This document shows, piece by piece, positions 5,250 through 34,432 of a stretch of 64,000 nucleotides of DNA. The notes beneath the pieces were generated by a model that was not told where the DNA came from, searched no databases, and was given only the letters and a program-made list of their open reading frames with translations. The stretch comes from an uncultured Actinomycetota bacterium. GTDB lineage: Bacteria > Actinomycetota > Actinomycetes > Prado026. The stretch lies in the NCBI GenBank assembly GCA_963849365.1, contig CAWKHA010000004.1, positions 1,570,051 to 1,634,050 on the forward strand, given 5' to 3'. Position 1 is the first letter of the stretch. Each line of letters starts with the position of its first letter. A program made the position numbers and the translations under genes.

Positions 5250-5312
5250 TCCCGCGCAGCAACCGCATCAGCCTCCACCGAACCGGTGGCGCTGGCGAGA
5301 GGAGCCGGAGAA

Positions 5313-6493: not shown

Positions 6494-6542
6494 AGTAGGA
6501 GGAGATCGACCGCCGACGCGACGGACCGCGCTCCTTACCCGT

Positions 6543-7976
6543 CTATGAGCGAGCTTCATCTGTGGCAGGGCGCAACATGGCACGGCCGGAGCGGCCGACT
6601 GTCGACGGCACGTGTGCGGCGACTGCGTCAACTCCGAGGCGCCCTGTGAAGACCATCCCGATGGTGAGCACCACCGTCATCGTCAGATTCATGATCAGGA
6701 AGGTCGTGTCAAAGCTGAGCGCTCCACGTGCAGCCGTGGCCACGAGCACGCCACCCAACCCGGTCAGCACAGCTGTCCCTGCCGCTCCCGCCAACTGAGT
6801 TGCGGCGGAATTGAAGCCGCGCTCTTCCTCAGTGGTCCGCCTCTGCACCAGCACGTTGACGGTCGTCATGGTGAGCCCGGCTCCAACACTTGCCAGACAC
6901 GAGGCAGCCAGCGCCCACCAGCCGGAAACCGTCGGAAAGGCGACGGCCGCGGCTACGAGAGTCGCGAGCGCGGTAAGGCCGAAGCCGAGCCTGACGAGCC
7001 GAATCCGGTAGACCTCATCGTCGCCCCGGGTCGGTCGGCTCTGCAGCCAGGATCCGACGGACCAGGCCGTCCCACCTACGGCAAGTGGCAGCCCGGCAAG
7101 CATTGGGCTGTACCCGTGCTGGACGGTCAGCATCAGCGGAATAACGGACTCGAGCCCCATCACGACGCCGGCGAGGATACCGCGAAGACCGATCGGCGCG
7201 GCTACGCCTCGGCGCAGCTGGAACGTCCCGCTGGGCAGCACGCCGCGCAGCCCCCAGGCGAGCAGCAGTCCAGAGCAGGTGGCGACGCCGACGAGGACCG
7301 GCCACGCCGGCGGGTGCTGGCCTACGTGCTCCAGAACCGCAATGGCAGCCGCGACGCCGAGCGCGAACGCCAGGTTCTTGCGACGCATGGCCGGCGCCGC
7401 GGGCCGGTGCAGCGCGCGCAGCACTGGGACCATCAGCAGCATAGCCACGACGGCGAGCGGAATGAGTCCGAAGAACGTCCATCGCCAGCTCGTGTACTGG
7501 GCGATGACCCCGGCGACCAACGGCCCCATCAGGGAGGGGACGACGAAGGTATATCCGATGACCGACTGGACCCTGGGCGCCTTCGCGGCCGAGAACATTC
7601 TGCCGATCACGACGTACACCGAGGTGAGCAGCATCCCGGTGCCGCAACCTTGGAGCAAGCGACCCACGATCACCCAGCTCATCGTCGGCGCCGCACCAAT
7701 CGCTAGCGAGCTCAATGGGAAGAGCAACATGCCTGCTATCAGCGGCGATCGAGGCCCGCGGGTGTCGCTGTACTGCGCCGCCAGAACAAGTCCGACGATC
7801 TTCGCCGTGACGAACCCGGTATAGACCCAGCCAAACGACCCGATACCGCCAAGGTCCTTAGCCGCCGTCGGCAGCACTGCGCCGGCCGACGTCTCCTGAA
7901 AGGCCATCAGCGTGAAGAGAACGAACACCCCGACCAACGTCGCCCGTTCACGCGCGTCAAACGAGGTAGATGGCAT
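6543..7976 (-). CDS. MFS transporter (paralog of 38597-39991)
   Basis: Many hydrophobic spans. MPSTSFDARERATLVGVFVLFTLMAFQETSAGAVLPTAAKDLG... aligns with the MFS at 38597-39991. ATG 7976 follows AGGAAG. Confidence 0.85.
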   Translation of the reverse strand: MPSTSFDARERATLVGVFVLFTLMAFQETSAGAVLPTAAKDLGGIGSFGWVYTGFVTAKIVGLVLAAQYSDTRGPRSPLIAGMLLFPLSSLAIGAAPTMSWVIVGRLLQGCGTGMLLTSVYVVIGRMFSAAKAPRVQSVIGYTFVVPSLMGPLVAGVIAQYTSWRWTFFGLIPLAVVAMLLMVPVLRALHRPAAPAMRRKNLAFALGVAAAIAVLEHVGQHPPAWPVLVGVATCSGLLLAWGLRGVLPSGTFQLRRGVAAPIGLRGILAGVVMGLESVIPLMLTVQHGYSPMLAGLPLAVGGTAWSVGSWLQSRPTRGDDEVYRIRLVRLGFGLTALATLVAAAVAFPTVSGWWALAASCLASVGAGLTMTTVNVLVQRRTTEEERGFNSAATQLAGAAGTAVLTGLGGVLVATAARGALSFDTTFLIMNLTMTVVLTIGMVFTGRLGVDAVAAHVPSTVGRSGRAMLRPATDEARS

Positions 7977-8001
7977 GAGTCTTCCTGGCCGCGCCCTAGC
8001 C

Positions 8002-8031
8002 GTATCAGATACCGATATCAGCAAAGAATAC
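8002..8031. promoter_or_regulatory. two overlapping RTATCG-N5-CGATAY boxes in the MFS / cupin divergent region
   Basis: GTATCA gatac CGATAT (8002-8018) and ATATCA gcaaa GAATAC (8015-8031). Confidence 0.65.
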
Positions 8032-8160
8032 GAGTGCACGAGGGTTATCTCCACCGTGGACCACATCGTGGAAGCACGACGACCATGTGACCGTGCTGCA
8101 GCGTCTGTGCCGAACGCGGTCGTCCACCGGCTGCCATGCGGAGGGTGCTGTCGGGTAGCG

Positions 8161-8177
8161 ATATCGTGCTAGGATAC
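8161..8177. promoter_or_regulatory. RTATCG-N5-CGATAY box overlapping the extended -10 of the cupin gene
   Basis: ATATCG tgcta GGATAC. TGcTAGGAT extended -10 (8167-8175), with ATG 8182 seven nt after the -10, a leaderless layout. Confidence 0.65.
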
Positions 8178-8181
8178 AGCG

Positions 8182-8535
8182 ATGACAGATGTCGAGCGGC
8201 TGTTGCCTGCACGCTTGCGCGCGCTGCTGCCTCGACGTGGAGACGCCGTCCCCGCGTACTGGCTGAGAGCGCCCGGCTGCGATGTGTTGTTCGTGGTGGC
8301 GCCGGCGGGGAGCAGCCTGGCGCCACACGTTCACGACACTGACAACGCCACTGTCGTGGTGTCCGGCGAGACGGTCTTGACGACGGCCCGGGGGGAGGAG
8401 CGATACAGCCAGGGACAGTGGTACGAGACGCGCGCAAACGAGCAGCACAGCGTGCGGTTCGAGGTCCCCACGCTCCAGGTCGAGCTGCGCTTTTCCGGAT
8501 CGACGAACCGCGACGGCTCACGTCCGCACGACTAA
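8182..8535 (+). CDS. cupin-fold protein
   Basis: 117 aa with SSLAPHVHDTDNATVVVSGE...W...EQHSV, a cupin-like metal motif spacing. Convergent 4-nt overlap with the next gene. Confidence 0.65.
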   Translation: MTDVERLLPARLRALLPRRGDAVPAYWLRAPGCDVLFVVAPAGSSLAPHVHDTDNATVVVSGETVLTTARGEERYSQGQWYETRANEQHSVRFEVPTLQVELRFSGSTNRDGSRPHD

Positions 8536-9626
8536 GCGCGAGCTCCTTGTCCCTCGTCCTGGCGTTCGTCGATGTCCAGCCAGGACGAGCCTGTCGCGCT
8601 GCAGGTGCCGCCACACGGGCAGTCCGGGATGTCTTCGCCGTAGTTCGCGGTGAAGTACTTGTGTGCGAGCCGTAGCGCCTCGTCCTCTGTGATGCCCCAG
8701 GACGACCAGTTGGCACGGGACGCCTCCATCACCTTGACCGGGTCGCCCATCCGCCAGTACTCGGAGAACCGGTCCGGCTTCCCGACCCCCAGCGCCTGCG
8801 CCAGGACGCTGATGTAGTGCTTGATCGGCAGCCGGTCGTTCGCGAACTTGCTCAGCTCGCGCGTGCACGAGTGATACAGCGTGACAAGAGTGTTCGCACC
8901 GGACGCAGCCAGGTACTGCTCGAGCTTCTGCTGCGCCGCCAGGTACTCGGCTGTTCCCATGGCCGCGATGACCAGACCCTGGTTGTCGCAGATGTCGAGC
9001 ACCTCAGTCTCCGCGTAGTCCACGTACTCGACGCCCGGAACCCGCTTTAGCAGCTCCGCGGCGATCTTCGGGTGCCGGTCGCGCACCGCGTGCTCCCCGA
9101 GATGTCCGTGCACGACTGCCTTCACATCGACCTCAGACTTCCAAGGCACCTGGTCACCAAGAGCATCGATGCGTTCGACGAGGAAGGCGGCCAGCGGTTC
9201 GCTCGTGAACTCGATGGTCTTGCTCGCACCGAACACGTCGCTGAACTGCATCTCACAAGCTGAGCACCACTGAATGGTTCGCTTGGGCTGGTACGCGGCC
9301 ATCCGCTCGACCGACGTGTTGATGATCTGACCGGCCATGTCGGGGAAGCCGAGGCCGCTGTAGACCTTCCCGCAGCACGTCCGCTGCCCGGCGATGGCAG
9401 AGAAGTCGACGCCGAGCGCCTCCATGACGGCCACCGCCTCACGCTGGAGGTGCGGCGTCTGCCGGACGTTGCAGCCGAAGTTGAGCAGGATCTCGACGGG
9501 CCGTGCGGGAACTTCGCCTGCCTCGGACCAGACCGCCTCCTCCCGCGACACCTGCATGTGCTCGCGCTCCATCATCGCCCGGTAGAACTCGGGGATGGTG
9601 AAGTCACTGAGTCTGGGTCCGGCCAT
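8532..9626 (-). CDS. CCG-motif cysteine-rich protein, HdrB/GlpC/LutA-like (paralog 1 of 3)
   Basis: NFGCNVRQTPHL...TCCGKVYSG...WCSACEMQF fits C-Xn-CCG-Xm-C-X2-C. The second half has a degenerate repeat. C-terminal tail is DCPCGGTC. ATG 9626 follows GGGAGGTG. Confidence 0.8.
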   Translation of the reverse strand: MAGPRLSDFTIPEFYRAMMEREHMQVSREEAVWSEAGEVPARPVEILLNFGCNVRQTPHLQREAVAVMEALGVDFSAIAGQRTCCGKVYSGLGFPDMAGQIINTSVERMAAYQPKRTIQWCSACEMQFSDVFGASKTIEFTSEPLAAFLVERIDALGDQVPWKSEVDVKAVVHGHLGEHAVRDRHPKIAAELLKRVPGVEYVDYAETEVLDICDNQGLVIAAMGTAEYLAAQQKLEQYLAASGANTLVTLYHSCTRELSKFANDRLPIKHYISVLAQALGVGKPDRFSEYWRMGDPVKVMEASRANWSSWGITEDEALRLAHKYFTANYGEDIPDCPCGGTCSATGSSWLDIDERQDEGQGARA

Positions 9627-9669
9627 CGCGGTCACCTCCCGCATGTCATCTCTGTCGACTGGTAACGTG

Positions 9670-9699
9670 ATAACGCTAGCAGATATCGGATGCCGACCT
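9670..9699. promoter_or_regulatory. RTATCG-N5-CGATAY boxes upstream of CCG gene 1
   Basis: ATAACG ctagc AGATAT (9670-9686) and ATATCG gatgc CGACCT (9683-9699, weak right half). Confidence 0.5.
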
Positions 9700-9733
9700 G
9701 TCGGGCTCCGAGGAGCTACCCCTCTGGCCTCGG

Positions 9734-10234
9734 CTAGTGAGCGCCGCCAAGCTCATATTCCGTGTCGATGGTGAGCCACCGGTGGCTGATCTTCCAGTCG
9801 CCGTTGACCTTCCGCAGCTTCCTGATGTCGGTGCCGGTCGCGCACACGCTGCGCGGGTCACCGAGCAGCAGCGTGTGGTGGTAGGCGCACAGGTAGGCCT
9901 CGCTCGTCCGGTCGACGATACGGACGAGGACGTTGGACCAGATGTGCCGGGTGCCGTTCCAGGTGGCGAAGTTGTCGAGGTACTTCTTGCGCAGCTCGTC
10001 CGAGCCGTTGACGGCGCCACGCGGGCTGTGGACCACGCAGTCCGCGGCGAAGAAGTCGATGATGGCGTCCAGATCGCGGTTGTCGTACACGTAGCCGTAG
10101 ACGGTGAAGTCGTCGCGGATCCGTGTTTCCTCCTCGATCAGCTGGGATCGCTCAACCTCGCCCGTCCCGGCCGGCCACCGCGGCAGCTGCGCGATCTCCT
10201 GAAGTGCGGCCACTCCGCCCGCTCCAAGGTCCAC
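9734..10234 (-). CDS. SnoaL-like / NTF2-fold protein (paralog 1 of 3)
   Basis: YVYDNRDLDAIIDFFAADCVVHSPRG...TRHIWSNVLV...AYLCAYHH...NGDWKISHRWLTID is a typical SnoaL_4 pattern. GTG 10234 follows GGAG. Confidence 0.75.
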   Translation of the reverse strand: MDLGAGGVAALQEIAQLPRWPAGTGEVERSQLIEEETRIRDDFTVYGYVYDNRDLDAIIDFFAADCVVHSPRGAVNGSDELRKKYLDNFATWNGTRHIWSNVLVRIVDRTSEAYLCAYHHTLLLGDPRSVCATGTDIRKLRKVNGDWKISHRWLTIDTEYELGGAH

Positions 10235-10266
10235 GATCCGTACTCCGTTCGGTCGCGATGTGATGG

Positions 10267-10368
10267 CTACTCGGCGGCGTCCAGGACGGCGCGGGGGATC
10301 AGTCCCCAGTACTCCCGCTCGTCTGCCGCGGCGATGTGTGGCGTGATGAGCGGTGCAAGGTCACACAT
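10267..10368 (-). pseudogene. 3'-terminal stump of a third D-2-hydroxyacid dehydrogenase paralog
   Basis: APLITPHIAAADEREYWGLIPRAVLDAAE-stop aligns with the C-termini VIITPHLAAGSERAYWTRVLRTALEAY and VILTPHIAAGTEVEYWRYTLRTVLEAY of the two intact paralogs. Nothing homologous lies upstream. Confidence 0.5.
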
Positions 10369-10405
10369 GACCGCCGGGCGCCGCGGATATCGACAGCCCC
10401 GGGGA

Positions 10406-11599
10406 TCAGATCGAGAGCTGCTTGCAGATGGCGTCGATGTCGGTGCGGCGCAGCTGCGAGGCAAAGCACGAGCCTTCCCGGTCGCACGAGCAGAATTGGA
10501 CGCTGGACGCGTATTCGGGAACGAAGTACTTCGTCACCAGCTCGCGGGCCTTGGCCTCGCTGATGTCCCACGATTCCCAGTACGACCGGCTCTCCTGGAG
10601 GATCTGCTCGGGTCCGAGCTGCCAGAAGCGGCGGAACCGGTCCTCGATCATGATGCCGAGCGTCTCGAGCAGCAGGCTCTGATAGTGGATGACCGGTAGC
10701 TCCGGGCTGCTGAACTTCGACCACTCGCGGTGGCACTTGTGGTGGTGGGTCAGGATGCCTTCCGCTCCAACAGCGCGGGCCTGCTCGAGCAGCTCAGCCT
10801 GAACGCTGCGGTACTCCTCCGTGCTGATGTCGCTCAGCTTGGTGTGCCCATACGCATCCCCCAGCTCGGGCCGGGAGTTGCTGGTGCATGGGCTTCCCAC
10901 GGATGGCGCAGTGACCATGCCTGCGAACTCGACACCAGGCATGAGGTCGAGCGTCTCGATGACGGCGTTGCGCGCCTCGAGCTTCGTCGCGTGCACCTCG
11001 GCGCCCTCAGCATGCAGCAGGAATCGTCGGGTGCGTGCCGGGTTCGGGTCGGCCCACGGGACCGAGTCCCCCATCTCCCTGAGCCGGCGCAGCACGAAGT
11101 CGGTGATGTGGACGACCTCGAAGGGAGCGCTTCCGGTCTGTTCGCGCATCTGCGCCACGTTGTGCTGGAACTGGATGAGGCACGAGCCGCACTGCTGCAC
11201 GTTGATCGTCGAGTGCCACGTCGCGAGCCGACCGACGCTGTGCCAGCAGACCCGGTCACCGAGCACGGCGTCGCCGGCGGCGCCGAACGGGCGGCCGCAA
11301 CAGAACTGGGTGCCGGCGGTGGCGACGAAGTCGATGCCGAGGGCCTCGAACAGCGCGACCTGGGTCAGCATGAGGTGCGGCGTCGCCTGAACCCCGCAGC
11401 TGAGGTTCAGCACGACCTCCGCGTCCTGCGTGCGCTTCTTGGGCGTCATCTCCCAGGCGATCTCGTCACGGCGGACCTGCATGCGGTAGCACTCTTCGAG
11501 GTTGCGGTAGTGCCCCTGGGGGTCGAACGGGACGTCGTCGTCGTCCTCGAGGTCGCCGTCGGAACGGCCCATGGCCCGGTCGCCCGTGTAGCTCTCCAT
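10406..11599 (-). CDS. CCG-motif cysteine-rich protein (paralog 2 of 3)
   Basis: NLSCGVQATPHL...FCCGRPFG...QQCGSCLIQF. C-terminal tail is FCSCDREGSC. ATG 11599 follows AGGTAGGAG. Confidence 0.8.
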   Translation of the reverse strand: MESYTGDRAMGRSDGDLEDDDDVPFDPQGHYRNLEECYRMQVRRDEIAWEMTPKKRTQDAEVVLNLSCGVQATPHLMLTQVALFEALGIDFVATAGTQFCCGRPFGAAGDAVLGDRVCWHSVGRLATWHSTINVQQCGSCLIQFQHNVAQMREQTGSAPFEVVHITDFVLRRLREMGDSVPWADPNPARTRRFLLHAEGAEVHATKLEARNAVIETLDLMPGVEFAGMVTAPSVGSPCTSNSRPELGDAYGHTKLSDISTEEYRSVQAELLEQARAVGAEGILTHHHKCHREWSKFSSPELPVIHYQSLLLETLGIMIEDRFRRFWQLGPEQILQESRSYWESWDISEAKARELVTKYFVPEYASSVQFCSCDREGSCFASQLRRTDIDAICKQLSI

Positions 11600-11651
11600 C
11601 AGCACTCCTACCTGCCTGTCATGATCGCGCAACTACTGAAATCGCGACCCA

Positions 11652-11668
11652 ATATCATCGTACGCTAC
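11652..11668. promoter_or_regulatory. RTATCG-N5-CGATAY box upstream of CCG gene 2
   Basis: ATATCA tcgta CGCTAC, between the 2-hydroxyacid dehydrogenase 2 stop and the CCG2 start. Confidence 0.5.
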
Positions 11669-11710
11669 CGACGCGTCAGCACCAACGATCGGCGCGATCG
11701 CCGAAGCATG

Positions 11711-12697
11711 TCACCCGGCGTAGGCCTCGAGCACGGTGCGCAGGGTGTACCTCCAGTACTCGACCTCGGTCCCCGCCGCGATGTGCGGCGTCAGGATCAC
11801 CCGGTCATCGGCCATCGCCAGCAGCGGATGTTCCTTGGGCAGCGGCTCGTAGCGGAAGACGTCGAGTCCGACGCCGGCGATCTCGCCGTTCTTCAGGGCA
11901 CCGACGAGCGCGTCGTCGTCAATGACGCGCCCGCGAGCGGTGTTGATCAGGAACGCGGTCGGCTTCATCATCGCGAACTCGCGGGCGCCGAACTGGTTCT
12001 CGTTGCCGCCAGGCCCGAGCTGCAGCCGGTGGTTGAGCACAAGGAAGTCCGATTCTCGCAAGAGGTCGTCGAACTCTCGCCATTCCACCCCGAGCCGCTG
12101 CTCGTCCTCGATCGGCAACCGGTGACGCTGGTTGTAGCGCAGCCGAACGCCGAACGGCGCGAGCAGCTTGGCCATGTTCGCGCCGATGGTGCCGACTCCG
12201 ACGAGGCCGACCACGTTTCCGCGCAGGAAGCCGGACCCCTGCACGCCTGGCCAGTTGTAGACGTAGGTCTCCTGGTCGGTCAGCACCGGCACATCACGCC
12301 CCGGCAGCCATTCGGCGGCCCTCATCTCGCGCGCGATCGTGAGGATGTTGTGTGCCAGCGTCAGCATCAGGGTGACGGCGAACTCGGCGACCGAGATCCG
12401 CGAGAACGCCGATTCGTTGGGCAGCGTGAGGACCTGGACCTCGGCATGGCCGTCCACTGCCCCGGCTACCGTTGGGCCGCTCGTCGCGACGACCCGGAGG
12501 GCGGGCAGCGCCCGGCGCACTGTCGCGCTGTCGAGGTCGCCGTCGACGGCGAAGATCGCTGCGGCCCCGTCCGGTTCGTCAGCCAGTACCCAGCCCACCG
12601 GCAGCACGTCCCGTATGAAGCCGCGCGCCTCCACGCCGTCCTCGTCATCGGCCATGAGGACGTACAGACGATGGACATGGGGACCATCGGTTGTCAT
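11711..12697 (-). CDS. D-isomer-specific 2-hydroxyacid dehydrogenase family (paralog 2)
   Basis: VGLVGVGTIGANMA, FLINTARGRVIDDDALVGALKNGEIAGVGLDVFRYEPLP and LTPHIAAGT. ATG 12697 follows GAGGTG. Confidence 0.85.
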   Translation of the reverse strand: MTTDGPHVHRLYVLMADDEDGVEARGFIRDVLPVGWVLADEPDGAAAIFAVDGDLDSATVRRALPALRVVATSGPTVAGAVDGHAEVQVLTLPNESAFSRISVAEFAVTLMLTLAHNILTIAREMRAAEWLPGRDVPVLTDQETYVYNWPGVQGSGFLRGNVVGLVGVGTIGANMAKLLAPFGVRLRYNQRHRLPIEDEQRLGVEWREFDDLLRESDFLVLNHRLQLGPGGNENQFGAREFAMMKPTAFLINTARGRVIDDDALVGALKNGEIAGVGLDVFRYEPLPKEHPLLAMADDRVILTPHIAAGTEVEYWRYTLRTVLEAYAG

Positions 12698-12718
12698 GGG
12701 CACCTCGCACGGTCGTTA

Positions 12719-12748
12719 ATAGCGGGATACGATATCGACATCCGACCC
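12719..12748. promoter_or_regulatory. RTATCG-N5-CGATAY boxes in the dehydrogenase / molybdoenzyme divergent region
   Basis: ATAGCG ggata CGATAT (12719-12735) and ATATCG acatc CGACCC (12732-12748). The string GATATCGACATCCGAC recurs at 56830. Confidence 0.55.
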
Positions 12749-12910
12749 TAATGGGTACCCGTCCAGCAAGATTCTGGGGGACGGCCGTGCTGCAGCCTCC
12801 GACGCTGGCCCTGACTCGAACCGCAATACTGCACAGATGAGGTTCCTCGTCGACGTCGAGCGCTGGCCCAGCCGGGGCGCCGCGCGAACCGGCGGCCACT
12901 GAGCGATGCC

Positions 12911-15307
12911 ATGACCAGGCGGACCGTACGCACCTACTGCTCGATGTGCGGAGTGGGCTGCCCGGCAGCGATCACTGTGGACGGAGGGCAGGTGCTCGCC
13001 CTGACCGCGGACCGCGCCCACCCCTCCGGGGGACTGATGTGTCCGAAGGGCCGAGCGGCGCCGGAGATCCACGACCATCCGCACCGGGTGAACTACCCGA
13101 TGCGGCGCACCCGGCCCAAGACTGCGGCCGACCCGGGCTGGCAGCGTATGTCATGGGACGAGGCGCTCGACCTGATCGCCAGGGAGCTGGGACGAATCCG
13201 CAGCGACCACGGGCCGGAAGCGGTCGTGGTGGGCCGCGGCACCTCGAGCGGGACCGGCCTCGGCCCGACCGAGCCGTGGGTGGCGCGCTTCTGCGAGTCG
13301 TTCGGCTCGCCGAACTACATGACGAACACGAACCTGTGCGCGTTCGCCCGCGACGGCGCCTTCTACTACACCTTCGGCGAGAACGGGCAGCCGCCGCCGG
13401 ACGTCGAGCACAGCGGCTGCGTGATCGTGTGGGGGGCCAACCCGCTGGCCACCCGGATCGACCTCGGCGCCGCGATCAGCGCGGCCAAGCAACGTGGCGC
13501 CCGGCTCATCGTGGTGGATCCACGGCGAGCGGGTCTGGCCGGACGCTCGGATCTGCTCCTCCAGGTGCGCCCGGGGACCGACGGCGCCCTGGCCCTCAGC
13601 TTCGTCCACCTCTTGATCGAGAACCGCTGGTACGACGAGGGATTCGTCAAGGAGTGGACGAACGCCGCGTTGCTCATCCGGGAGGACACCGCTCGCCCGT
13701 TGCGGAGCCGTGATGTGGGGGAGGGGCTGCGCACGGTCGCCGGGCCACGCGATGAGGACGGATTCGTCGGCCTGGACTCCGACGCTGGCCAGCTGGTCGA
13801 GTACCGACCGTCGGCTCGGCGCTATGCCTGCGCGCCGGCCGCGCTCAGCCTGACCGGGAAGGTCACCGTAGAGCTCCGCGACGGCTCGCGGGTTCGTTGC
13901 CGCCCGGTCTTCGAAGTGCTAGCCGAGGTGGCCCGACAGTGCGCGCCGGACGTGGCCGCGCAGATCACCGGCGTCGCCGAAGCGCAGATCCGGCGTGCGG
14001 TGCGCATGGTCTACGAGAACCGGCCGGTGTCGCACCACGTGTGGAACGGGATCGTCCAGCACACGAACGGGACGCAGGCGGGGCGCGCGATCGAGATCTT
14101 CTACGCGCTCATTGGCGACTGGGACCGGCGCGGCGCGAACGTCATCCCGCCGCCGCCGGCCACCGGCAGGATCGCGGGGCTCGGACTGCTGCCGCAGGAG
14201 CGGGCCGCGCGTCGGCTGGGACTGGCCGAGCGCCCGCTCGGGCCCGCGGCCGTCGACGGGGACGTCGTGGCGCCGGACGTCTTCACCGCGATCCTCGAGG
14301 GGCATCCGTACCGGGTGCGCGGCCTGCTCTCCTTCGGCAGCAACACCCTGCTCAACACGGGCGACCCGCTCCGGGGACGGGCGGCTCTGCAGAAGCTCGA
14401 GTTCTTCGCCCAGGCCGAGCAGTTCCACACGCCCACCAGCGATCTTGCCGACGTGATCCTGCCGGCCACGACATTCCTCGAGAGCGACCTGCTGATCGTG
14501 ACCCGCGACGGTCGGGCCGAGCGTCGCCTGCCGGCCGTGGCGCCGCAGTACGAGCGACGGTCCGACATCCAGATCATCTTCGATCTCGCGGCCCGCCTCG
14601 GCCTGGGCGAGTGGTTTGCCGACGGGAGCGTGGTGGATGCCTACGACGCAATCCTCGAGCCGGCCGGCCTGACCTGGGACGGGCTGCTGGAGCACCCGAA
14701 CGGTGTCAACGTGCGTCCGGAGGTGGAGCACAAGAAGCATGCGGCGTCGGCCGGTGGGGGCCAGCGTCTCGGGTTCGGTACGCCGTCCGGACTGGTCGAG
14801 CTCTTCTCCGAGCGTTTCGCCGACCACGGTTACCCACCGTTGCCAAGCTACGTGGAACCGGTCGAGAGTCCGGTCGGCACCCCTGAACTCGCTCGCGACT
14901 ACCCGCTCGTGCTCACCAACGCCAAACGGGGCCACTTCCTGCACAGCCAGCATCGCGGCATCGCCAGCCTCCGGCGGCACTACCCACAGCCGACTGTCGA
15001 GATCCACCCGGAGACCGCTGCGCGGCACGGCATCGCTGACGGCGCCCTGGTCGCTCTCGAAACGCCCAGGGGCGGAATCCGGGTCACGGCGAAGGTCACC
15101 GAGACGATCCGTCCGGGCGTTGTGTGCGCCAACCACGGCTGGTGGGAGGGCTGTGAGGAGCTCGGCCTGGATGCGCTCGACCCGCTCGACGAGACCGGCG
15201 CGAACGTCAATTTGCTGGTCCACAACGACATGCGCGACCCGATCGGTGGGGGCGTCGGCCACCGGTCCGCCCTCTGCCGACTCCGTCCGCTGCCGGACCT
15301 CGCCTGA
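12911..15307 (+). CDS. molybdopterin (bis-MGD) oxidoreductase, DMSO-reductase superfamily, cytoplasmic
   Basis: N-terminal CSMCGVGC...CPKG 4Fe-4S motif, 798 aa, VWGANP and VVDPRR blocks. No Tat signal. Confidence 0.85.
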   Translation: MTRRTVRTYCSMCGVGCPAAITVDGGQVLALTADRAHPSGGLMCPKGRAAPEIHDHPHRVNYPMRRTRPKTAADPGWQRMSWDEALDLIARELGRIRSDHGPEAVVVGRGTSSGTGLGPTEPWVARFCESFGSPNYMTNTNLCAFARDGAFYYTFGENGQPPPDVEHSGCVIVWGANPLATRIDLGAAISAAKQRGARLIVVDPRRAGLAGRSDLLLQVRPGTDGALALSFVHLLIENRWYDEGFVKEWTNAALLIREDTARPLRSRDVGEGLRTVAGPRDEDGFVGLDSDAGQLVEYRPSARRYACAPAALSLTGKVTVELRDGSRVRCRPVFEVLAEVARQCAPDVAAQITGVAEAQIRRAVRMVYENRPVSHHVWNGIVQHTNGTQAGRAIEIFYALIGDWDRRGANVIPPPPATGRIAGLGLLPQERAARRLGLAERPLGPAAVDGDVVAPDVFTAILEGHPYRVRGLLSFGSNTLLNTGDPLRGRAALQKLEFFAQAEQFHTPTSDLADVILPATTFLESDLLIVTRDGRAERRLPAVAPQYERRSDIQIIFDLAARLGLGEWFADGSVVDAYDAILEPAGLTWDGLLEHPNGVNVRPEVEHKKHAASAGGGQRLGFGTPSGLVELFSERFADHGYPPLPSYVEPVESPVGTPELARDYPLVLTNAKRGHFLHSQHRGIASLRRHYPQPTVEIHPETAARHGIADGALVALETPRGGIRVTAKVTETIRPGVVCANHGWWEGCEELGLDALDPLDETGANVNLLVHNDMRDPIGGGVGHRSALCRLRPLPDLA

Positions 15308-20400: not shown

Positions 20401-20759
20401 CCTTCACGACTCTGCACAGTCCCGACGTCCCTCAACCGACGGGCGCCTACAGCCAAGGCCGGCGGATCGGGCCGTTCGTCCAGACCAGTGGCCAGGTCGC
20501 CAAGGACCTCGACCTGGACATCGAGGGCCAGACTGTCCAGGCACTGGAGCAGATCCAGGCACTGCTCACCCACGAGGGTCTGGGTTGGCCAGACGTGCTG
20601 ATGATTCGCGTCTTCCTCGCCGACGACGCGCTCTGGCACGGCATGGACGTGGCCTACCGTCGTGTCGTCGCGCAGCCGTACCCGCCGCGCACCACGGTCG
20701 GCGCCACCCTCGGACCGGACATGCTCGTCGAGATCGACGCGCTGGCGGTGATCGCGTGA
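20397..20759 (+). CDS. ridA: RidA/YjgF family reactive-imine deaminase
   Basis: PQPTGAYSQG...VQTSGQV...IRVFL...YPPRTTVGA...VEIDALAV. GTG 20397 follows GAGAGGAG and overlaps the upstream stop (GTGA). Confidence 0.85.
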   Translation: MTFTTLHSPDVPQPTGAYSQGRRIGPFVQTSGQVAKDLDLDIEGQTVQALEQIQALLTHEGLGWPDVLMIRVFLADDALWHGMDVAYRRVVAQPYPPRTTVGATLGPDMLVEIDALAVIA

Positions 20760-21766
20760 CCACCGGCGACCGATCGGTCTTCGACCAGCCACCTCGAGTG
20801 AACAGCGGCGGGCACGTCGGCCCGATCGACGCCTCGCTCGTCCCCCGTTTCGTCGGCGAAGCGACGTTCCTGCGCCTACCACGGCCAGGCGAGGTCGGCG
20901 ACATCGACATCGCCATTCTCGGGGTCCCCTTCGACTCCGGGGTCTCCTTCCGGCCCGGCGCGCGGTTCGGCCCGGCACACGTCCGGGAGTCGTCCAGGCT
21001 GATCCGGCCCTACAACCCCGCACTGGGCATCGAGCCGTTCGCCGTCGCCCAGGTCTGCGACGTGGGCGACCTGGCGGTCACGCCTTACTCCATCGACGAA
21101 GCGGTAGCCACCATCCAGGCGGGCGCACGGGAGCTGAGTGAGCGAGCCGCGCACCTGGTCGCGATCGGGGGTGACCACACGATCGCGCTCCCGCTGCTGC
21201 GCGATGTGCACCGCCGGCACGGACGCGTCGCGGTCGTGCACTTCGACGCGCACCTCGACACGTGGGACACCTACTTCGGCCAGCCGATCACCCACGGCAC
21301 GCTGTTCCGGCGTGCGGCAGAGGAGGGTCTGCTCGATCGGGACGGCTGCCTGCACATCGGGACCCGGGCATCGTTGTACGCCGCCTCCGACCTCACCGAC
21401 GACCGAAGCTTCGGCTTCGACATCATCTCGGCCGACGACCTGCAGGACCTCGGCACCCGAGCAACGGTCGAGCGGATGCGCGAACGGCTTCAGGACCGAC
21501 CCGTCTACGTGTCGGTCGACATCGACGTGCTGGAACCCGGGCTGGCGCCGGGCACCGGCACTCCCGAGCTCGGCGGCCTGCTCGGTCGCGAGCTACTCGG
21601 TCTGATCCGAGGTTTGGCCGGGCTGAACATCGTCGGGGGTGACGTCGTCGAGGTTGCCCCCGCCTACGACCACGCACAGATCACGGGGATCGCTGCGGCA
21701 CACGTTCTGTACGAACTCGTCTCCGCCATCGCGGTCACCCGCAGAATCAGGGGGAGCAGCTCGTGA
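20756..21766 (+). CDS. agmatinase/arginase-family ureohydrolase (guanidino-acid hydrolase candidate)
   Basis: Mn-site motifs GGDHTIALP, VHFDAHLDT and SVDIDVLEP. GTG 20756 overlaps the ridA stop (GTGA). Confidence 0.85.
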   Translation: MTTGDRSVFDQPPRVNSGGHVGPIDASLVPRFVGEATFLRLPRPGEVGDIDIAILGVPFDSGVSFRPGARFGPAHVRESSRLIRPYNPALGIEPFAVAQVCDVGDLAVTPYSIDEAVATIQAGARELSERAAHLVAIGGDHTIALPLLRDVHRRHGRVAVVHFDAHLDTWDTYFGQPITHGTLFRRAAEEGLLDRDGCLHIGTRASLYAASDLTDDRSFGFDIISADDLQDLGTRATVERMRERLQDRPVYVSVDIDVLEPGLAPGTGTPELGGLLGRELLGLIRGLAGLNIVGGDVVEVAPAYDHAQITGIAAAHVLYELVSAIAVTRRIRGSSS

Positions 21767-23367
21767 CCGCAGGCGTCCAGATCGAGACAGCGAGCAGCAA
21801 CGGAGGGGCCGCGGTCGTCCGTACTCTCCAGGCTCACGGCGTGCGCACCGTGTTCGGCATCCCCGGCACGCACAATCTCGAGATCTACCGCCACCTGGCC
21901 GAGTCGTCCATTCGAGTGGTCACCACTCGCCACGAGCAGGGCGCCGGTTACGCCGCCGACGGCTACGCGCAGGTCAGCCGTACCCCCGGCGTCGTCATCA
22001 CCACCACCGGTCCCGGCGCGCTGAACGCGGCCACTGCCGTCGCCACGTCGTATGCCGAGTCGCGACCGGTCCTGCTCATCTCCTCGGGTCTGCCCCTCGG
22101 CGCCAACGACCGTGACCTCGGCGGCCTGCACGACACCAAGGACATCCTTGGCGCAATGTCGTCCCTGACCGCCTGGAGCGTTCGCCCCGGGACGCCGGAG
22201 GAGGTCGTCGACGCGATCTCACAGGCGTTCACGCTGTTCGCCACCGAGCGACCCCGCCCGGTCTTCATCGAGATTCCGGTCGACGTCCTCGAGTCCGCCT
22301 GGAGCGGCTCGACGACCGCTCCGATCCGATACTCGGCCCGCAGCCTCGCCGATGACGCCGCATTGGCGCAGGCCGCAGCCTTGTTGAGCCGCAGCCGACG
22401 GCCGGCGATGGTCCTCGGCGGCGGTGCGATCGACGCAGCAGCAGAGATCCGCGATCTGGCCGAACGACTCGACACGGTCGTCGTCTCGACATGCAACGGC
22501 AAGGGAGTGGTATCGGAGACGCATCCGCTCAGCGCCGGGGCGTCGATCCGCCTGCGCGCGGTCCAGCGCTACCTCGAACACTGCGACGCGCTCCTCGTCA
22601 TCGGCAGCGAGCTCGGTGACGCCGACCTGTGGGGCGGACAGATCAGCAACCCACACGTGATCCGGATCGACATCGACCCCCGGCAGCTGCACAAGAACCT
22701 CCCGGCGACCGTGCCCCTGCTGGGTGACGCACGCGCCATCGTCGGCGAGCTGGTCAAACGCGTGAATCCCCGCTCGGTCGACACACGAGCGGCCGACGTC
22801 GCCGCCGTCCTTCGCGTGGCAGCAACCGAAGAGGCGCTGCTCGATGGACGCGACTGGGTCGAGATCAACAGTGCGCTGCGTGAGGCACTTCCCCAAGACA
22901 CGATCGTCGCCGGCGACTCGTCACAGGTCACCTACTTCGGAACCGCACACTTCTTCCCGACCGAGCTACCGGCGAGCCTGCTCTACATGCCCCGCAGCGC
23001 AACGCTCGGCTACGCGCTGCCCGCGGCGATCGGGGCGAAGCTGGCCGCCCCGCAGCGGCCGGTGGTCGCGCTGCTCGGTGACGGCGCGTTCATGTTCTCC
23101 GTACAGGAGCTGGTCACGGCTGTCGAGCAAGATCTCGGCATCGCGATCGTCGTGATCAACAACCGGGGGTACTGCGAGATCAAGCAGCAGCAGGCGCGGC
23201 GCGGAGTCGACCCGATCGGAGTCGACCTCTATGTGCCCAATCTCGCGGACCTCGCGCTGTCGTGCGGTGCGGCGGGCGTGACTGCGCGCGACCCTGACCA
23301 TGCCGCGAAGCTGACTGCCGCAGCGGTGAACGGGGCCGGCCCCACCCTTGTCGAGCTGATGGTCTGA
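21763..23367 (+). CDS. thiamine-diphosphate enzyme, acetolactate synthase large subunit / 2-oxoacid decarboxylase family
   Basis: FGIPGTHNL, HEQGAGYAADGYA and TPP motif LLGDGAFMFSVQELVTAVEQDLGIAIVVINN. GTG 21763 overlaps the upstream stop (GTGA). Confidence 0.85.
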   Translation: MTAGVQIETASSNGGAAVVRTLQAHGVRTVFGIPGTHNLEIYRHLAESSIRVVTTRHEQGAGYAADGYAQVSRTPGVVITTTGPGALNAATAVATSYAESRPVLLISSGLPLGANDRDLGGLHDTKDILGAMSSLTAWSVRPGTPEEVVDAISQAFTLFATERPRPVFIEIPVDVLESAWSGSTTAPIRYSARSLADDAALAQAAALLSRSRRPAMVLGGGAIDAAAEIRDLAERLDTVVVSTCNGKGVVSETHPLSAGASIRLRAVQRYLEHCDALLVIGSELGDADLWGGQISNPHVIRIDIDPRQLHKNLPATVPLLGDARAIVGELVKRVNPRSVDTRAADVAAVLRVAATEEALLDGRDWVEINSALREALPQDTIVAGDSSQVTYFGTAHFFPTELPASLLYMPRSATLGYALPAAIGAKLAAPQRPVVALLGDGAFMFSVQELVTAVEQDLGIAIVVINNRGYCEIKQQQARRGVDPIGVDLYVPNLADLALSCGAAGVTARDPDHAAKLTAAAVNGAGPTLVELMV

Positions 23368-31488: not shown

Positions 31489-32073
31489 GTGCTCGACCTG
31501 ACCAGCGGGAGCGGAGCCCGCCTGCTCCTGTCCGTCACGGGGCTGCCACGCGTTCCTCAGGGTCTCGCCAAGGACCGGGAGCTGGAGCTGGTCGCCGAAG
31601 AGGCTGCGCTGCTGGACTACGTCACGTCGTACGCGCACGTCGTCAACTCCGGGGACATCGACGGGGTCGTGGACAGCTACGCGGCCGACTGCGTGTGCAT
31701 CAGCCCGCGGGGGTGCTACATCGGTACGGCGGAAGTGCGCCGGAACTACGAGCTCTACTACGACCCGGTGCGCTGGTTCACACTCTGGATGAACGTCACG
31801 GTGCGCTTCGTGCGCCCCTTCGACGACGCATACGTGTCCGCCTACCAGTACAGCATCGGCGTCAGTGACGCGGATCCAGTGGCACAGGGCGCGATCTCCA
31901 CCGACGTCTGGCACGTGACGCGGGTCGAGCGGTCGTGGAAGATCGTCGAACGCCGGATCGACTTCGTCGACCGCTGCAACCACCGGCTGCTTCCAGCCGT
32001 CTCGGCCGAGCGGACCGATGGCGGTCTCCGTCCCATCTCTGTACTCTCGGACAGCGATATCTCGCGGCGTTAG
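31489..32073 (+). CDS. SnoaL-like / NTF2-fold protein (paralog 2 of 3)
   Basis: YAHVVNSGDIDGVVDSYAADCVCISPRG...WMNVTV...AYVSAYQY...ERSWKIVERRIDF. GTG 31489 follows GAGGAGG. Confidence 0.75.
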   Translation: MLDLTSGSGARLLLSVTGLPRVPQGLAKDRELELVAEEAALLDYVTSYAHVVNSGDIDGVVDSYAADCVCISPRGCYIGTAEVRRNYELYYDPVRWFTLWMNVTVRFVRPFDDAYVSAYQYSIGVSDADPVAQGAISTDVWHVTRVERSWKIVERRIDFVDRCNHRLLPAVSAERTDGGLRPISVLSDSDISRR

Positions 32074-32088
32074 CAGGAGAGGAACGAC

Positions 32089-33396
32089 GTGGCCGGGGAG
32101 CAGACCAGCGGCCGAGGCGGCATCGTCGTCATCGGCGGCGGCATCGTGGGCGTCAGCACCGCGCTGCACCTGCAGCGGGCGGGTCACCAGGTGACGCTCA
32201 TCGAACGCGACTCGCCGGGATCGGGCGTATCCGGGCACAACGGCGGGGTCTTCAACGTCGGCGAGTGCATGCCGACGGGGACTCCAGGCGTGCTGCGCAG
32301 CATCCCGCGGCTGCTGGTCGATCCGAACGCGGCGCTGATCGTGCGATACCGCTACCTGCCCCAGCTCGCGCCCTGGCTGGTGCGGTTCGTTCGCTCGACC
32401 AGGTCCGAACGCGTCGAGGAGATCGCTGCGGCGATGCAGCAGCTCACCGACCGGTCCATCGACGGGTACCGCCCGCTCGTCGAGCACACTCCGGCCACGG
32501 AGCTCATGCACGAGGGTGGCATCCTGCTCGGCTACCGGACCGAGCAGATGTTCGACGCGGCTCGGTACGGTCGTGAGCTGCGCGTCCGTCACGGGGTCGA
32601 GTTCGACGTCCTCGACGACGTGGAGATCACAGCTCTCGACCCTGTCCTCGCCGGCAGGTTCGACCGGGCGATCTACCGACGACAGCCACACTTCACGGAC
32701 GACTCCCAGCGATTCGTCGAGCTGCTCGCCGACGACTTCGTCGCACGAGGCGGCCTGGTCCGCCACGCCGTCGCCCAGGGCATCGACGCGCGCAACGGCC
32801 GGGTGAAGGCAGTGGACACCACGGCCGGACGGGTGTCTGCGGACGTGGTCGTCATCGCCGCCGGTGCCTGGTCGAGGCGTCTGGTGCGCCAGCTCGGCTT
32901 CGACGTGCCGTTGGAGACCGAGCGCGGCTACGGAGTCTTCCTTCCCGACCCCGGGGTCGAGCTACGGCTGCCGGTCATCCTCGAGGACCTGCACATCGGG
33001 ATCACCCCGACCCGGGCCGGTCTGCAGCTGACCGGGATCGACGAGCTCGCCAGCGCTGACGCGCCGCCTCGGTCCGCGGTCGCCAAGCGGGTCATCCGGG
33101 CGGCGACGACGGTGTTCCCCGAGCTGCGCACCGAGGGTGCGGTGTCGTGGATGCACTGTCGTCCGTCCCTGCCCGACTCCCTGCCCGTCATCGGGGAGGT
33201 GCCCGGACACCGCAACGCGTTCATGGCCTTCGGCCACGGGCACAAGGGCCTGGGCATGGGCGGGATCACCGGCTCGCTGATCCGCCAGCTGGTCGACGGG
33301 GAGCGGCCGAGCCTGGACCTGAAGCCGTACAGCCCGCTGCGGTTCAGCAGACAAGGACGCCGGCAGGTGGCGCGAGACAGCGTCACCGTGGCGTGA
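32089..33396 (+). CDS. DadA-like FAD-dependent D-amino-acid dehydrogenase family
   Basis: IVVIGGGIVGVSTALHLQRAGHQVTLIE and AFGHGHKGLGMG. GTG 32089 follows GGAGAGGA. Confidence 0.85.
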   Translation: MAGEQTSGRGGIVVIGGGIVGVSTALHLQRAGHQVTLIERDSPGSGVSGHNGGVFNVGECMPTGTPGVLRSIPRLLVDPNAALIVRYRYLPQLAPWLVRFVRSTRSERVEEIAAAMQQLTDRSIDGYRPLVEHTPATELMHEGGILLGYRTEQMFDAARYGRELRVRHGVEFDVLDDVEITALDPVLAGRFDRAIYRRQPHFTDDSQRFVELLADDFVARGGLVRHAVAQGIDARNGRVKAVDTTAGRVSADVVVIAAGAWSRRLVRQLGFDVPLETERGYGVFLPDPGVELRLPVILEDLHIGITPTRAGLQLTGIDELASADAPPRSAVAKRVIRAATTVFPELRTEGAVSWMHCRPSLPDSLPVIGEVPGHRNAFMAFGHGHKGLGMGGITGSLIRQLVDGERPSLDLKPYSPLRFSRQGRRQVARDSVTVA

Positions 33397-33414: not shown

Positions 33415-34432
33415 GTGTCGACCTCGCAGTACTACCACCGGCTCCGCGACAGCCAGCGCCTGCTCCTGAGGCGGGACGAGGTGCGCTGGCACCTGCAGGT
33501 CACCGAGACGCCGCCGCAGTCCGACGTGGTCGTCGACTTCGGCTGTGGCCAGCAGCTGGTTCCGAGCATCATGGTCGAGATGGTGGACGTGCTGACTGCG
33601 CTCGGTGCTCCGGTGGCCGCGGTGGCGGGCCCGCAGTGGTGCTGCGGGATGCCGGTGGAAGAGGAGGAGGAGGGTGGCAGCCTGCGAGTGGTGAGCGCCT
33701 CGGTCCGTCACCTGTCCAGAGTTCCAGCCACGCATGGTCTTCCAGTCCTGTGGAGCGTGGTGGCCACACACGGCGAAGTTGCGCGAAGCCGGTGAAGCGG
33801 TTCCGTTCGGCCTGGAGCATCTGAGCCAGCTGGTGCTGGACACGCTGCAGGGCCGTGTCGACGACATCGCGTGGCGAGAGGCGCCGACCACCCGGGTGCT
33901 GCTCCATCTCAAGGCGCAGGACGCGACTGAGGAGGACCGGGCCGAGCGGCCCTCGCTCAGCACGACCGACCGCGCGGTGCCAGCGATCCTGGAGCTGATC
34001 CCTTCGGTCGAGATCGTGGGCGAGGTCGAGGCGCCCTCGGCCGGTCGGCCCTGCGAGACGGACGAGGACGGCGACGACGACTCGCTCCTGGCCGCGCTCT
34101 CGGCCCAGGAGCGTCAGGGGGTCTTGGACGAGTTGGTCGCCCAGGCGGATCGGGCCGGCGCTGATCTGATCGTGTGCGCTCACCACCGCTGCTACCAGGA
34201 GTGGGGCAAGTTCGCGAGCGAGCGCCTTCCGGTCCACCACTACATCTCGGTGCTGGCCGACGCGCTGGGGTTGGCTCAACCAAGCCGTTTCCACCAGTGC
34301 TACGCGCTGCCGTCCACCGACGACATCGTCGAGGCGACCGCGCCGCAGTGGCGGTCCTGGGACCTGAACCGGGACGAGGCGGTCGTGATCGCCCAGGAGA
34401 TCTTCCCGAAGCATCCGCGCTCGCGCAGCTGA
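33415..34432 (+). pseudogene. CCG-motif protein (paralog 3 of 3), frameshifted and with degraded CxxC
   Basis: DFGCGQQLVP...WCCGMP is in the frame of ORF 33415-33795. The remainder (EFQPRMVFQSCGAWW...HHRCYQEWGKF...) is in the frame of ORF 33734-34432. Deleting one nt near 33718 restores alignment to paralogs 1 and 2. The CxxC reads CGAW and the C-terminal Cys tail is absent. Confidence 0.7.

Follow-up and report, generated by a model that had tools for sequence, protein, structure and literature searches.

The CCG genes and their neighbours

A stretch of 64,000 nucleotides from an uncultured Actinomycetota bacterium (contig CAWKHA010000004.1, positions 1,570,051 to 1,634,050), called here the window, has three paralogous genes whose products, CCG1, CCG2 and CCG3, belong to an unnamed branch of the HdrB/LutA/GlpC/EtfD 'CCG' superfamily, a branch known chiefly from soil Actinobacteria and Chloroflexi. 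The window has a high G+C content (64-72%), and Pfam annotation covered about 55 genes in these 64 kb; the whole contig is at least 2 Mb long. Family membership was judged by NCBIfam curated cut-offs and Pfam gathering thresholds, and coordinates are window positions. Two of the paralogs are in a minus-strand locus at 8.5-12.7 kb, where the order in the direction of transcription is 2-HADH, CCG2, a 171-nt spacer, SnoaL1 and CCG1:

11711..12703, minus strand: 2-HADH, an NAD-dependent D-isomer-specific 2-hydroxyacid dehydrogenase (PF02826, 156 bits against a cut-off of 25, E 6e-46)
10406..11632, minus strand: CCG2, 408 aa, shortened to 399 aa if an internal start at 11605 is used (PF02754, 22.1 bits against a cut-off of 20.6)
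10276..10368, minus strand: relic of the 3' end of a 2-HADH gene, directly upstream of SnoaL1 (tblastn)
9734..10234, minus strand: SnoaL1, a 166-aa NTF2-like protein (SnoaL_4, PF13577, 48.2 bits against a cut-off of 24, E 1.3e-12)
8532..9644, minus strand: CCG1, 370 aa (PF02754, 35.0 bits against a gathering cut-off of 20.6)

CCG1 has a complete five-cysteine motif, C58-X31-C90C91G-X34-C127-X2-C130 (residues 58-130, nucleotides 9255-9473), then a remodelled second site made up of H179, H181, C219, H258 and C260 (nucleotides 8856-9110), and ends with a tail, C342-P-C344-GGT-C348, that is CPCGGTC (nucleotides 8601-8621). The corresponding parts of CCG2, which is 31% identical to CCG1, are C79-X31-C111C112G-X34-C148-X2-C151, then C249 and C300 at the second site, and a tail that reads CSCDREGSC. 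Each of the two proteins has the PF02754 cysteine pattern CX31-39CCGX35-36CXXC once, and neither has a CxxCxxCxxxC ferredoxin motif, Fer4 or any non-CCG Pfam domain. The 2-HADH is glyoxylate/hydroxypyruvate reductase-like; its top NCBIfam match, glyoxylate reductase, is below the cut-off, and it reaches no equivalog cut-off. Within the spacer between CCG2 and SnoaL1, the relic (...LITPHIAAADEREYWGLIPRAVLDAAE*) is 52% identical over 31 aa to residues 297-327 of the 2-HADH (tblastn, E 4e-4). In relatives an intact 2-HADH gene holds the position of the relic, which is the remnant of an ancestral junction between 2-HADH and SnoaL1. A promoter and terminator scan of 8000-13000 gave nothing above shuffled expectation.

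The third paralog is on the plus strand, where gaps of 15 and 18 nt separate three consecutive genes:

31489..32073, plus strand: SnoaL2, a marginal SnoaL_4 match (24.2 bits against a cut-off of 24), 34% identical to SnoaL1, start codon uncertain
32089..33396, plus strand: DadA-like FAD-dependent oxidoreductase of the DAO family (PF01266, 203 bits, E 1.7e-59)
33415..34432, plus strand: CCG3, a P0136-type CCG paralog with one frameshift at ~33717-33722, about 338 aa when joined

The DAO protein scores 189.9 bits against the DadA model NF001933, for which the cut-off is 383, so it is not assigned to DadA itself; the beta subunit of Pyrococcus proline dehydrogenase (1y56_B) is among its top PDB matches. 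CCG3 is encoded in one frame from 33415 to ~33717 and in another over 33722..34432, the reference for the joining being an intact 340-aa homolog, P0136 (P numbers denote family representatives and L numbers the loci of relatives). The frameshift could be a sequencing error rather than a real break; intact CCG3 orthologs come after CCG1 or the DAO gene in L014, L042 and L037. The motif of CCG3, C-X31-CC-X34-C-G-A-W, has four of the five cysteines, and there is no Cys tail. Its C-terminal part alone has no Pfam match, and it is placed in the family by tblastn similarity to CCG1 and CCG2 (E 1e-32 to 1e-42) together with a visible C..CCG..C motif. An 836-aa minus-strand open reading frame (ORF), 30256-32766, overlaps SnoaL2 and the start of the DAO gene. 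Since Pfam backs only its 3' part (30256 to ~31425, ELFV dehydrogenase), the true starts of both the ELFV gene and SnoaL2 are uncertain.

A sequence-only reading of this DNA had anticipated much of the above. It had the orders on the two strands with their SnoaL-like, 2-HADH and DadA-like genes, for which Pfam matches were found, the 2-HADH stump, and the extra Cys clusters that end CCG1 and CCG2. Its description of the paralogs as stand-alone CCG proteins of HdrB/GlpC/LutA type lacking a ferredoxin domain agrees with Pfam, the motif scan and Foldseek, and the ~55 annotated genes bear out its statement that no HdrA/HdrC, GlcD/E or LutB/C partner adjoins them. The size of 365-400 aa that it gave for all three is right or nearly so for CCG1 and CCG2 and does not hold for the frameshifted CCG3; likewise one canonical motif with a degenerate second repeat describes CCG1 and CCG2, and CCG3 departs from it with its four cysteines.

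A rare and conserved branch of the CCG superfamily

Placement in a well-characterized family was one of the outcomes that the same reading had named as fatal to its proposal, and profile searches gave no named family. No NCBIfam cut-off is reached by the CCG proteins: the scores are 43 bits for GlpC (cut-off 278), 19 for GlcF (333) and 27 for LdhH (800). In the best of these alignments residues 165-400 of GlpC, comprising both CCG lobes and not the ferredoxin domain, are matched to residues 48-286 of the query. The CCG proteins are nevertheless modelled with the two-lobed HdrB/LutA fold. An AlphaFold model of CCG1 built with 62 sequences has a predicted local confidence (pLDDT) of 87.8 and a predicted template-modelling score (pTM) of 0.89, the tail being weaker (pLDDT 61-74). 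With this model Foldseek found in the PDB an integrative model of LutA (9a6l_A, 4e-7), EtfD of Mycobacterium smegmatis (9ojn, 3e-5) and several HdrB chains at about 1e-4, with Asp/Glu racemases as more distant structural neighbours. At the sequence level a search of PDB chains with CCG1 alone gave no match at E<=10, and only the profile of 109 family representatives reached EtfD (1.7e-15) and HdrB (5e-14), to which it aligns motif by motif.

The equivalences in the second lobe were taken from this profile alignment, a global hhalign comparison of lobe 1 with lobe 2 having given no internal-repeat alignment. L182, I218 and Y257 of CCG1 are where the canonical first Cys, the first Cys of the 'CC' and the first Cys of the 'CxxC' would be. 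Each of the three paralogs thus keeps two of five cysteines in its second repeat, which in CCG1 are C219 and C260, accompanied by histidines at 179, 181 and 258. In 61 orthologs of 54-90% identity the His residues are unchanged or almost unchanged (>=90%), as are all 10 CCG1 cysteines, of which motif 1 contributes five, lobe 2 two and the tail three. More widely the lobe-2 signature H-x-H...C...H-x-C-R recurs in most of about 100 representatives, both in stand-alone forms of 320-340 aa and in forms of 415-450 aa that have a 2x[4Fe-4S] domain at the N-terminus, a redox context. As altered motifs hold altered clusters in EtfD, it is plausible by analogy that the conserved His and Cys of lobe 2, and the four-Cys motif of CCG3, are metal ligands and not the product of decay. 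The CxCxGx(1-6)C tail is confined to subfamilies of 365-470 aa, and its occurrence is independent of C219 and C260. The idea that the two lobe-2 and three tail cysteines together rebuild a five-Cys non-cubane site is not supported, because relatives of 320-340 aa that have no tail keep C219 and C260, and the tail-bearing representatives with a fused helix-turn-helix (HTH) domain, P0114, P0120 and P0122, are without them; the position of the tail in the model is also poorly defined.

Members of the family are rare: among 1.8e9 representatives scanned exhaustively with HMMER, 509 clusters match at E<=1e-3 and 42 of these reach E<=1e-30. A plasmid collection gave one distant match, from Ilyobacter (24% identity). 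The named carriers are metagenome-assembled genomes from soil and freshwater (Acidimicrobiales, Kribbellaceae, Streptosporangiaceae, Jatrophihabitans, Limnocylindria and Chloroflexi) and Kribbella shirazensis, P0043 being the Kribbella ortholog; in them the proteins are annotated merely as 'Fe-S oxidoreductase' or '(Fe-S)-binding protein'.

Three independent loci have, beside the CCG1 ortholog, a paralog in which a CCG domain is fused to an N-terminal XRE-type HTH domain (Pfam HTH_31):

L008, ~6500-7900: HTH-CCG fusion, 468 aa
L033, 623-1950: HTH-CCG fusion, 441 aa
L024, 2-1160: HTH-CCG fusion, partial

Representatives of this kind are P0114, P0118 and P0129, the last being additionally fused to an EamA transporter domain. 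The fusion proteins keep motif 1 and the Cys tail and have lost the Cys and His of lobe 2. Their domain composition suggests an unrecognized type of regulator, one that may sense an Fe-S cluster or a ligand by means of the CCG domain on which it is built.

Gene neighbourhoods in relatives

Relatives bring together what is separated in the window. The clearest instance is L037, where within 6.6 kb the order is a gene for a thiamine pyrophosphate (TPP)-dependent enzyme, 2-HADH, SnoaL1 (62% identity), CCG2 (69%), SnoaL2 on the opposite strand (59%), CCG1 (83%), DAO (69%) and a CCG3-type gene (82% to P0136), the last three overlapping stop to start. All seven components of the two window loci are therefore contiguous in a relative. 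The 2-HADH of L037 (366-1312) is split into ORFs of 199 and 130 aa, probably by a frameshift or an assembly error. Further contigs, L038-L041, repeat 2-HADH, SnoaL1 and CCG2, except that L041 is without 2-HADH, and in L037-L041 the CCG2 orthologs (66-70% identity) come after SnoaL1. L012 has SnoaL2 on the opposite strand (an ortholog of the 59% type), CCG1 (83%) and, directly downstream of the latter, DAO (62%). As the orders in L037-L041 and L012 reunite the window components, the set of TPP enzyme, 2-HADH, SnoaL1, CCG2, SnoaL2, CCG1, DAO and CCG3 has been kept together through rearrangement and is conserved in this lineage. The TPP enzyme gene directly upstream of 2-HADH-SnoaL1-CCG2 (first gene in L037 and L040, and present in L039) is of the same Pfam families as one at 21763..23367 in the window, a possible displaced member of the set. 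SnoaL1 has only 10 homologs among 5.8e9 proteins; its most constant neighbour is 2-HADH, in 8 of 9 contigs, and CCG2 is next to it in 5 of the 7 that are informative. In L044 and L045 a convergent DapB-like gene is downstream of SnoaL1 and there is no CCG neighbour.

From the side of CCG1, 27 non-redundant neighbourhoods of orthologs (57-83% identity) were obtained from genome and metagenome scans and contig look-ups; a scan of genome contigs by peptide patterns, which are very specific, gave 6 loci. Genes were called in the neighbourhoods with a home-made codon log-odds caller and clustered by BLASTP, and the following tallies depend on both:

13 of 27: ATP-binding cassette (ABC) transporter of Opp/Dpp type with an SBP_bac_5 protein of ~690 aa
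10 of 27: second CCG paralog within 3 kb
8 of 27: SnoaL_4 gene within two genes
8 of 27: DAO-family gene in the flank
3 of 27: 2-HADH

The second paralogs are of CCG2 type (P0110), of CCG3 type (P0136, directly after CCG1 in L014 and L042), or HTH_31-fused, and one of P0117 type overlaps CCG1 in L003. In L043 it is the gene of a TrxB-like Pyr_redox_2 flavoprotein that overlaps the stop codon of the CCG1 ortholog. The SnoaL_4 neighbours form two subfamilies with no detectable mutual similarity, c34, to which the window type belongs, and the Chloroflexi-like c13 (96 bits), whose gene is divergently transcribed from the CCG gene. Searching by tblastn with the window SnoaL proteins had missed the Chloroflexi-type SnoaL_4 neighbours, which were recovered by clustering and then Pfam.

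Linkage of CCG genes to SnoaL, 2-HADH and DAO genes is consequently real and limited to some lineages. That CCG proteins are 'always next to' SnoaL and dehydrogenase genes, as the sequence-only reading had put it, is correct for the window and its close relatives and not for the family as a whole. The co-occurrence statistics that it called for came out in the same divided way, a SnoaL link being present in some lineages, with two dissimilar SnoaL_4 subfamilies and SnoaL1 mostly beside 2-HADH. The features that recur around CCG1, inside amino-acid catabolic islands, are a further CCG gene, a flavoprotein gene and a transporter of peptide type.

Two kinds of neighbour seen in passing concern the same gene strings. 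Fragments of an Ldh_2 gene (malate/L-lactate dehydrogenase 2 family) lie between CCG2-like and CCG1-like genes in two loci (L001 9400-9900 and L002 2229-2679); because these relics occupy the position that the 2-HADH stump has in the window, they suggest repeated insertion and deletion between paired CCG genes. FhuF-like proteins with a C-terminal CCx10-12CxxC motif of [2Fe-2S] type head ABC-transporter/CCG strings in at least six loci, and could point to a metal chelate or another reducible imported substrate:

L001, 7146-8147: FhuF-like gene
L006, ~1000-2000: FhuF-like gene
L010, L025, L030 and L032: FhuF-like genes

Comparison with known CCG systems

HdrB, the catalytic subunit of CoM-S-S-CoB heterodisulfide reductase (PDB 5ODC, 8RVY), has the two-lobed CCG fold in common with the proteins described here, and its CX31CCX35CXXC spacing and all five cysteines are present in motif 1 of CCG1 and CCG2. 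Unlike them it has two complete motifs with two non-cubane clusters and works with HdrC and HdrA, whereas their motif 2 is left with two of five cysteines and they have an additional C-terminal helical extension of ~45 residues with the CxCxGxC tail; their hosts, also in contrast to those of HdrB, are apparently aerobic soil bacteria. Neither a second complete motif nor a gene for HdrC, HdrA or HdrE goes with the CCG proteins within the window. LutA of LutABC (YkgEFG) is like them in being a stand-alone CCG protein with no ferredoxin domain, in being the best structural match and in its tie to hydroxy-acid oxidation. LutA, however, is a protein of ~240 aa with two CCG domains, encoded together with LutB (Fer4 and LUD) and LutC (LUD) (PMC3924224). 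At 370-408 aa CCG1 and CCG2 have extra N- and C-terminal parts, they match none of the NCBIfam Lut models, and no LUD domain is found in the window or in the fetched neighbourhoods of relatives.

GlpC of GlpABC, with GlcF and HdrD, gives the top NCBIfam alignment, which runs across both CCG lobes, and it serves a DAO-family flavoprotein, GlpA. GlpC, GlcF, HdrD and EtfD have a fused N-terminal 2x[4Fe-4S] ferredoxin domain that CCG1 and CCG2 do not, and there is no GlpB in the window. The genes for LutB/C, GlcD/E, HdrA/C, GlpB and the electron-transfer flavoprotein (ETF) are all missing from the annotated set, as is any Fer4-type or HdrA-like gene. A further point of likeness, a DAO gene beside genes for Fe-S-type subunits in an amino-acid catabolic context, is to the hetero-oligomeric DAO-family dehydrogenases. 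In these (archaeal L-proline dehydrogenase, D-hydroxyproline dehydrogenase, opine oxidases and HcnABC) the FAD subunit is found beside small Fe-S subunits, and the accessory subunits are of [2Fe-2S], ferredoxin or Pyr_redox type, not CCG.

Mycobacterial EtfD (Rv0338c family; PDB 9OJN), itself an actinobacterial CCG protein, is the best profile match among solved structures. Its altered CCG motifs are instructive: four cysteines hold a linear [3Fe-4S] cluster, five cysteines and a histidine hold a non-catalytic non-cubane [4Fe-4S] cluster, and the His in the CxxC of one lobe can ligate the cluster of the other (PMC13083937). Its CCG domains are an electron wire to menaquinone (PMC13083937). EtfD is a protein of ~1000 aa with five transmembrane helices, haem b and two cubane clusters that receives electrons from ETF, unlike the window CCG proteins, which are soluble and stand-alone with no ETF genes nearby. 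As the sequence-only reading had supposed, no system of this composition was found in the literature, where searches for a CCG protein with SnoaL, D-amino acid dehydrogenase or FAD oxidoreductase partners brought up no description of it. What is new here is a family of stand-alone CCG proteins with paired paralogs, which combine a Cys2/His3 second site with a CxCxGxC tail and are linked to DAO genes in amino-acid catabolic islands.

Proposed role

By analogy with the systems just described, the CCG paralogs may be Fe-S electron-transfer subunits of DAO-type flavoprotein dehydrogenases, a reading to which a probability of about 0.45 can be assigned. CCG1 would form a complex with the DadA-like flavoprotein and one or both of CCG2 and CCG3, and motif 1 of CCG1 and CCG2 is predicted to hold a non-cubane [4Fe-4S] cluster, as the same motif does in HdrB and EtfD. 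FADH2 would be formed when a D- or cyclic amino acid, or an amine related to these, is oxidized; its electrons would go to the CCG subunits, and these would pass them to the respiratory chain, probably to menaquinone, or to another acceptor. Transfer would parallel that by GlpC for GlpA and that by the CCG lobes of EtfD, with the difference that no 2x[4Fe-4S] ferredoxin domain is involved. The 2-HADH, SnoaL and TPP enzymes would act in the same pathway on the resulting 2-oxo or 2-hydroxy acid, outside the Fe-S complex. An electron outlet of dehydrogenases was one of two suggestions in the sequence-only reading, and the stop-to-start overlap of CCG1, DAO and CCG3 in L037 is a gene context that fits it, and fits it better than it does the other suggestion, an enzyme made up of CCG and SnoaL proteins.

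Several observations weigh against an electron outlet. There is no DAO gene in the sequenced flank of 19 of the 27 CCG1 orthologs, and the commonest neighbour is the Opp-type ABC transporter; CCG3 is frameshifted in the window, so the full gene set is not obligatory in this genome. The known CCG electron-transfer proteins relay through cubane clusters, provided by HdrC, by LutB or by the N-terminal domains of GlpC, GlcF and EtfD, and no such relay is present in the CCG proteins or the window, nor was a membrane anchor or quinone site identified. The complete 'CC' pair of motif 1 is moreover the configuration that is catalytic in HdrB, unlike the His- or Thr-modified, non-catalytic one of EtfD (PMC13083937).

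This last feature leads to a rather unlikely but substantial alternative, that the CCG proteins are themselves catalytic in the manner of HdrB, an exposed motif-1 cluster using electrons from a DAO-type or TrxB-like flavoprotein to reduce or cleave a bond, for instance a disulfide, in a small molecule that Opp-type ABC or MFS transporters encoded nearby would bring in. Both cysteines of the 'CC' are kept, as in the catalytic clusters of HdrB and not in EtfD, where they are modified (PMC13083937), and the Opp/Dpp-type transporter that would do the importing is often in the same gene string as CCG1. The TrxB-like gene that overlaps the CCG1 stop in L043 would supply a donor, and the HTH-CCG fusions beside CCG1 fit a CCG domain that recognizes a ligand, though redox sensing through an Fe-S cluster explains the fusions equally. 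HdrB, however, has two complete clusters facing one pocket, and the second site here is short of three cysteines; amino-acid catabolic enzymes dominate the neighbourhoods, in which no genes for sulfur metabolism or thiol cofactors were seen; and Hdr-type clusters that are exposed should be sensitive to oxygen (PMC13083937), which sits poorly with hosts that are apparently aerobic. A new thiol/disulfide-dependent isomerase, dehydratase or reductase formed by CCG and SnoaL-like proteins is improbable. It has to its credit the proximity of SnoaL_4 genes in the 8 neighbourhoods counted above, a SnoaL gene adjoining all three CCG genes of the window, the CCG2 orthologs directly after SnoaL1 and the racemases among the weaker Foldseek neighbours of CCG1. 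The remaining 19 neighbourhoods have no SnoaL gene, though, the two SnoaL_4 subfamilies are dissimilar, SnoaL is divergently transcribed from CCG in L012, L022 and L037, and in L044 and L045 SnoaL1 does without a CCG neighbour. The idea is the weaker of the two in the sequence-only reading because SnoaL1 is more constantly beside 2-HADH (8 of 9, and the window relic) than beside CCG (5 of 7).

It is also decidedly unlikely that there is no specific module at all, the CCG genes being chance neighbours in a rearranging amino-acid catabolic island, with partners encoded elsewhere or with a function as Fe-S or redox sensors. With five DAO, four racemase-like and two 2-HADH genes in the window, adjacency to 'a dehydrogenase' comes easily; gene order differs between the window and its relatives, gene relics are present, neighbour sets vary widely among lineages, and the view is of 64 kb only of a much longer contig. 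Yet these seven or eight gene families are still found together after rearrangement, with protein identities of 55-83%, genes in L037 and L043 overlap stop to start, and SnoaL1, for all its rarity among 5.8e9 proteins, has CCG2 adjacent in most of the informative contigs. The electron-outlet reading has a bolder extension, unlikely to hold in its entirety, in which CCG hetero-oligomers with one Hdr-type non-cubane cluster per subunit, together with the Cys2/His2-3 and tail sites, would be a conduit free of ferredoxin domains from DAO or TrxB flavoproteins to the quinone pool or to a small-molecule substrate, and the HTH-fused paralogs would be new CCG Fe-S transcription factors that sense redox state or ligands.

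CCG domains hold very unusual Fe-S clusters, non-cubane [4Fe-4S] in Hdr and linear [3Fe-4S] in mycobacterial EtfD (PMC13083937), and the cluster chemistry of EtfD makes attention timely to a family that is real, conserved and rare and whose suggested role comes from gene context. It offers three further natural motif variants (Cys5 with a Cys2/His3 second site, Cys4, and the CxCxGxC tail) in small soluble proteins that are perhaps easier subjects for spectroscopy and structure work than large complexes. Should the CCG proteins be the electron outlet of DadA-like enzymes, this would explain how oxidation of D- and cyclic amino acids is coupled to respiration in some Actinobacteria and Chloroflexi, and would give a function to proteins now annotated merely as '(Fe-S)-binding protein'.

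The surrounding catabolic island

The whole window, 1-64000, is by its Pfam annotation a large amino-acid catabolic island whose substrates are probably D- or cyclic amino acids, and the same mix of catabolic families surrounds CCG1 orthologs in Chloroflexi and other Actinobacteria. The five DAO-family genes include those at 17946-19250, 25412-26527, 32089-33396 and 35185-36390, and with them are four Asp/Glu-racemase-like genes, two 2-HADH genes and a class IV aminotransferase. There are DHDPS-, DapB- and THDPS-like genes and one for an ornithine cyclodeaminase/mu-crystallin protein; an aldehyde dehydrogenase, an ELFV dehydrogenase, a 2-oxoacid dehydrogenase E1/E2 set and acyl-CoA dehydrogenases; and an amidohydrolase, an M20 peptidase and MFS and chromate-type transporters. 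Three features have counterparts near CCG genes in relatives:

8182..8535, plus strand: small cupin gene (Cupin_2, E 9e-7), convergent with CCG1, with a 4-nt overlap at the CCG1 stop
21763..23367, plus strand: TPP-dependent enzyme (Pfam)
58806-63999, plus strand: Opp/Dpp-type ABC transporter, comprising two permeases, a fused double ATPase and a large SBP_bac_5 protein whose gene is cut off by the end of the window

The transporter is 49 kb from CCG1 in the window, and one of the same type directly precedes the CCG1 ortholog in the 13 neighbourhoods already mentioned. A second TPP gene is at 56862-58556. The start of the first is overlapped by an arginase-family gene (20756-23367 for the pair, plus strand), with a PALP enzyme gene and the DAO gene at 17946-19250 (minus strand) upstream, and the arginase-family and TPP pair resembles the 2-ketoarginine route of arginine catabolism, with its TPP-dependent decarboxylase and guanidinobutyrase. 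A third SnoaL paralog (50893-51414, minus strand), 32% identical to SnoaL1, adjoins no CCG gene and sits between genes for a 2-oxoacid dehydrogenase E2 component and an enoyl-CoA hydratase.

A SASA-family (sialate O-acetylesterase-like) gene at 5286-6493, plus strand, is frameshifted, its N-terminus (WILAGQSGMEGRG...) being in the frame of ORF 5286-5696 and the remainder (PF03629 positions 60-225) in that of ORF 5066-6493. Counting CCG3, the 64 kb contain two genes with a frameshift, and these are pseudogenes or else reflect assembly indels. An intact 408-aa ortholog of the SASA-family protein is encoded next to the CCG1 ortholog in L001, and a 58% homolog of the window cupin is, like it, convergent to the CCG1 ortholog in L028.

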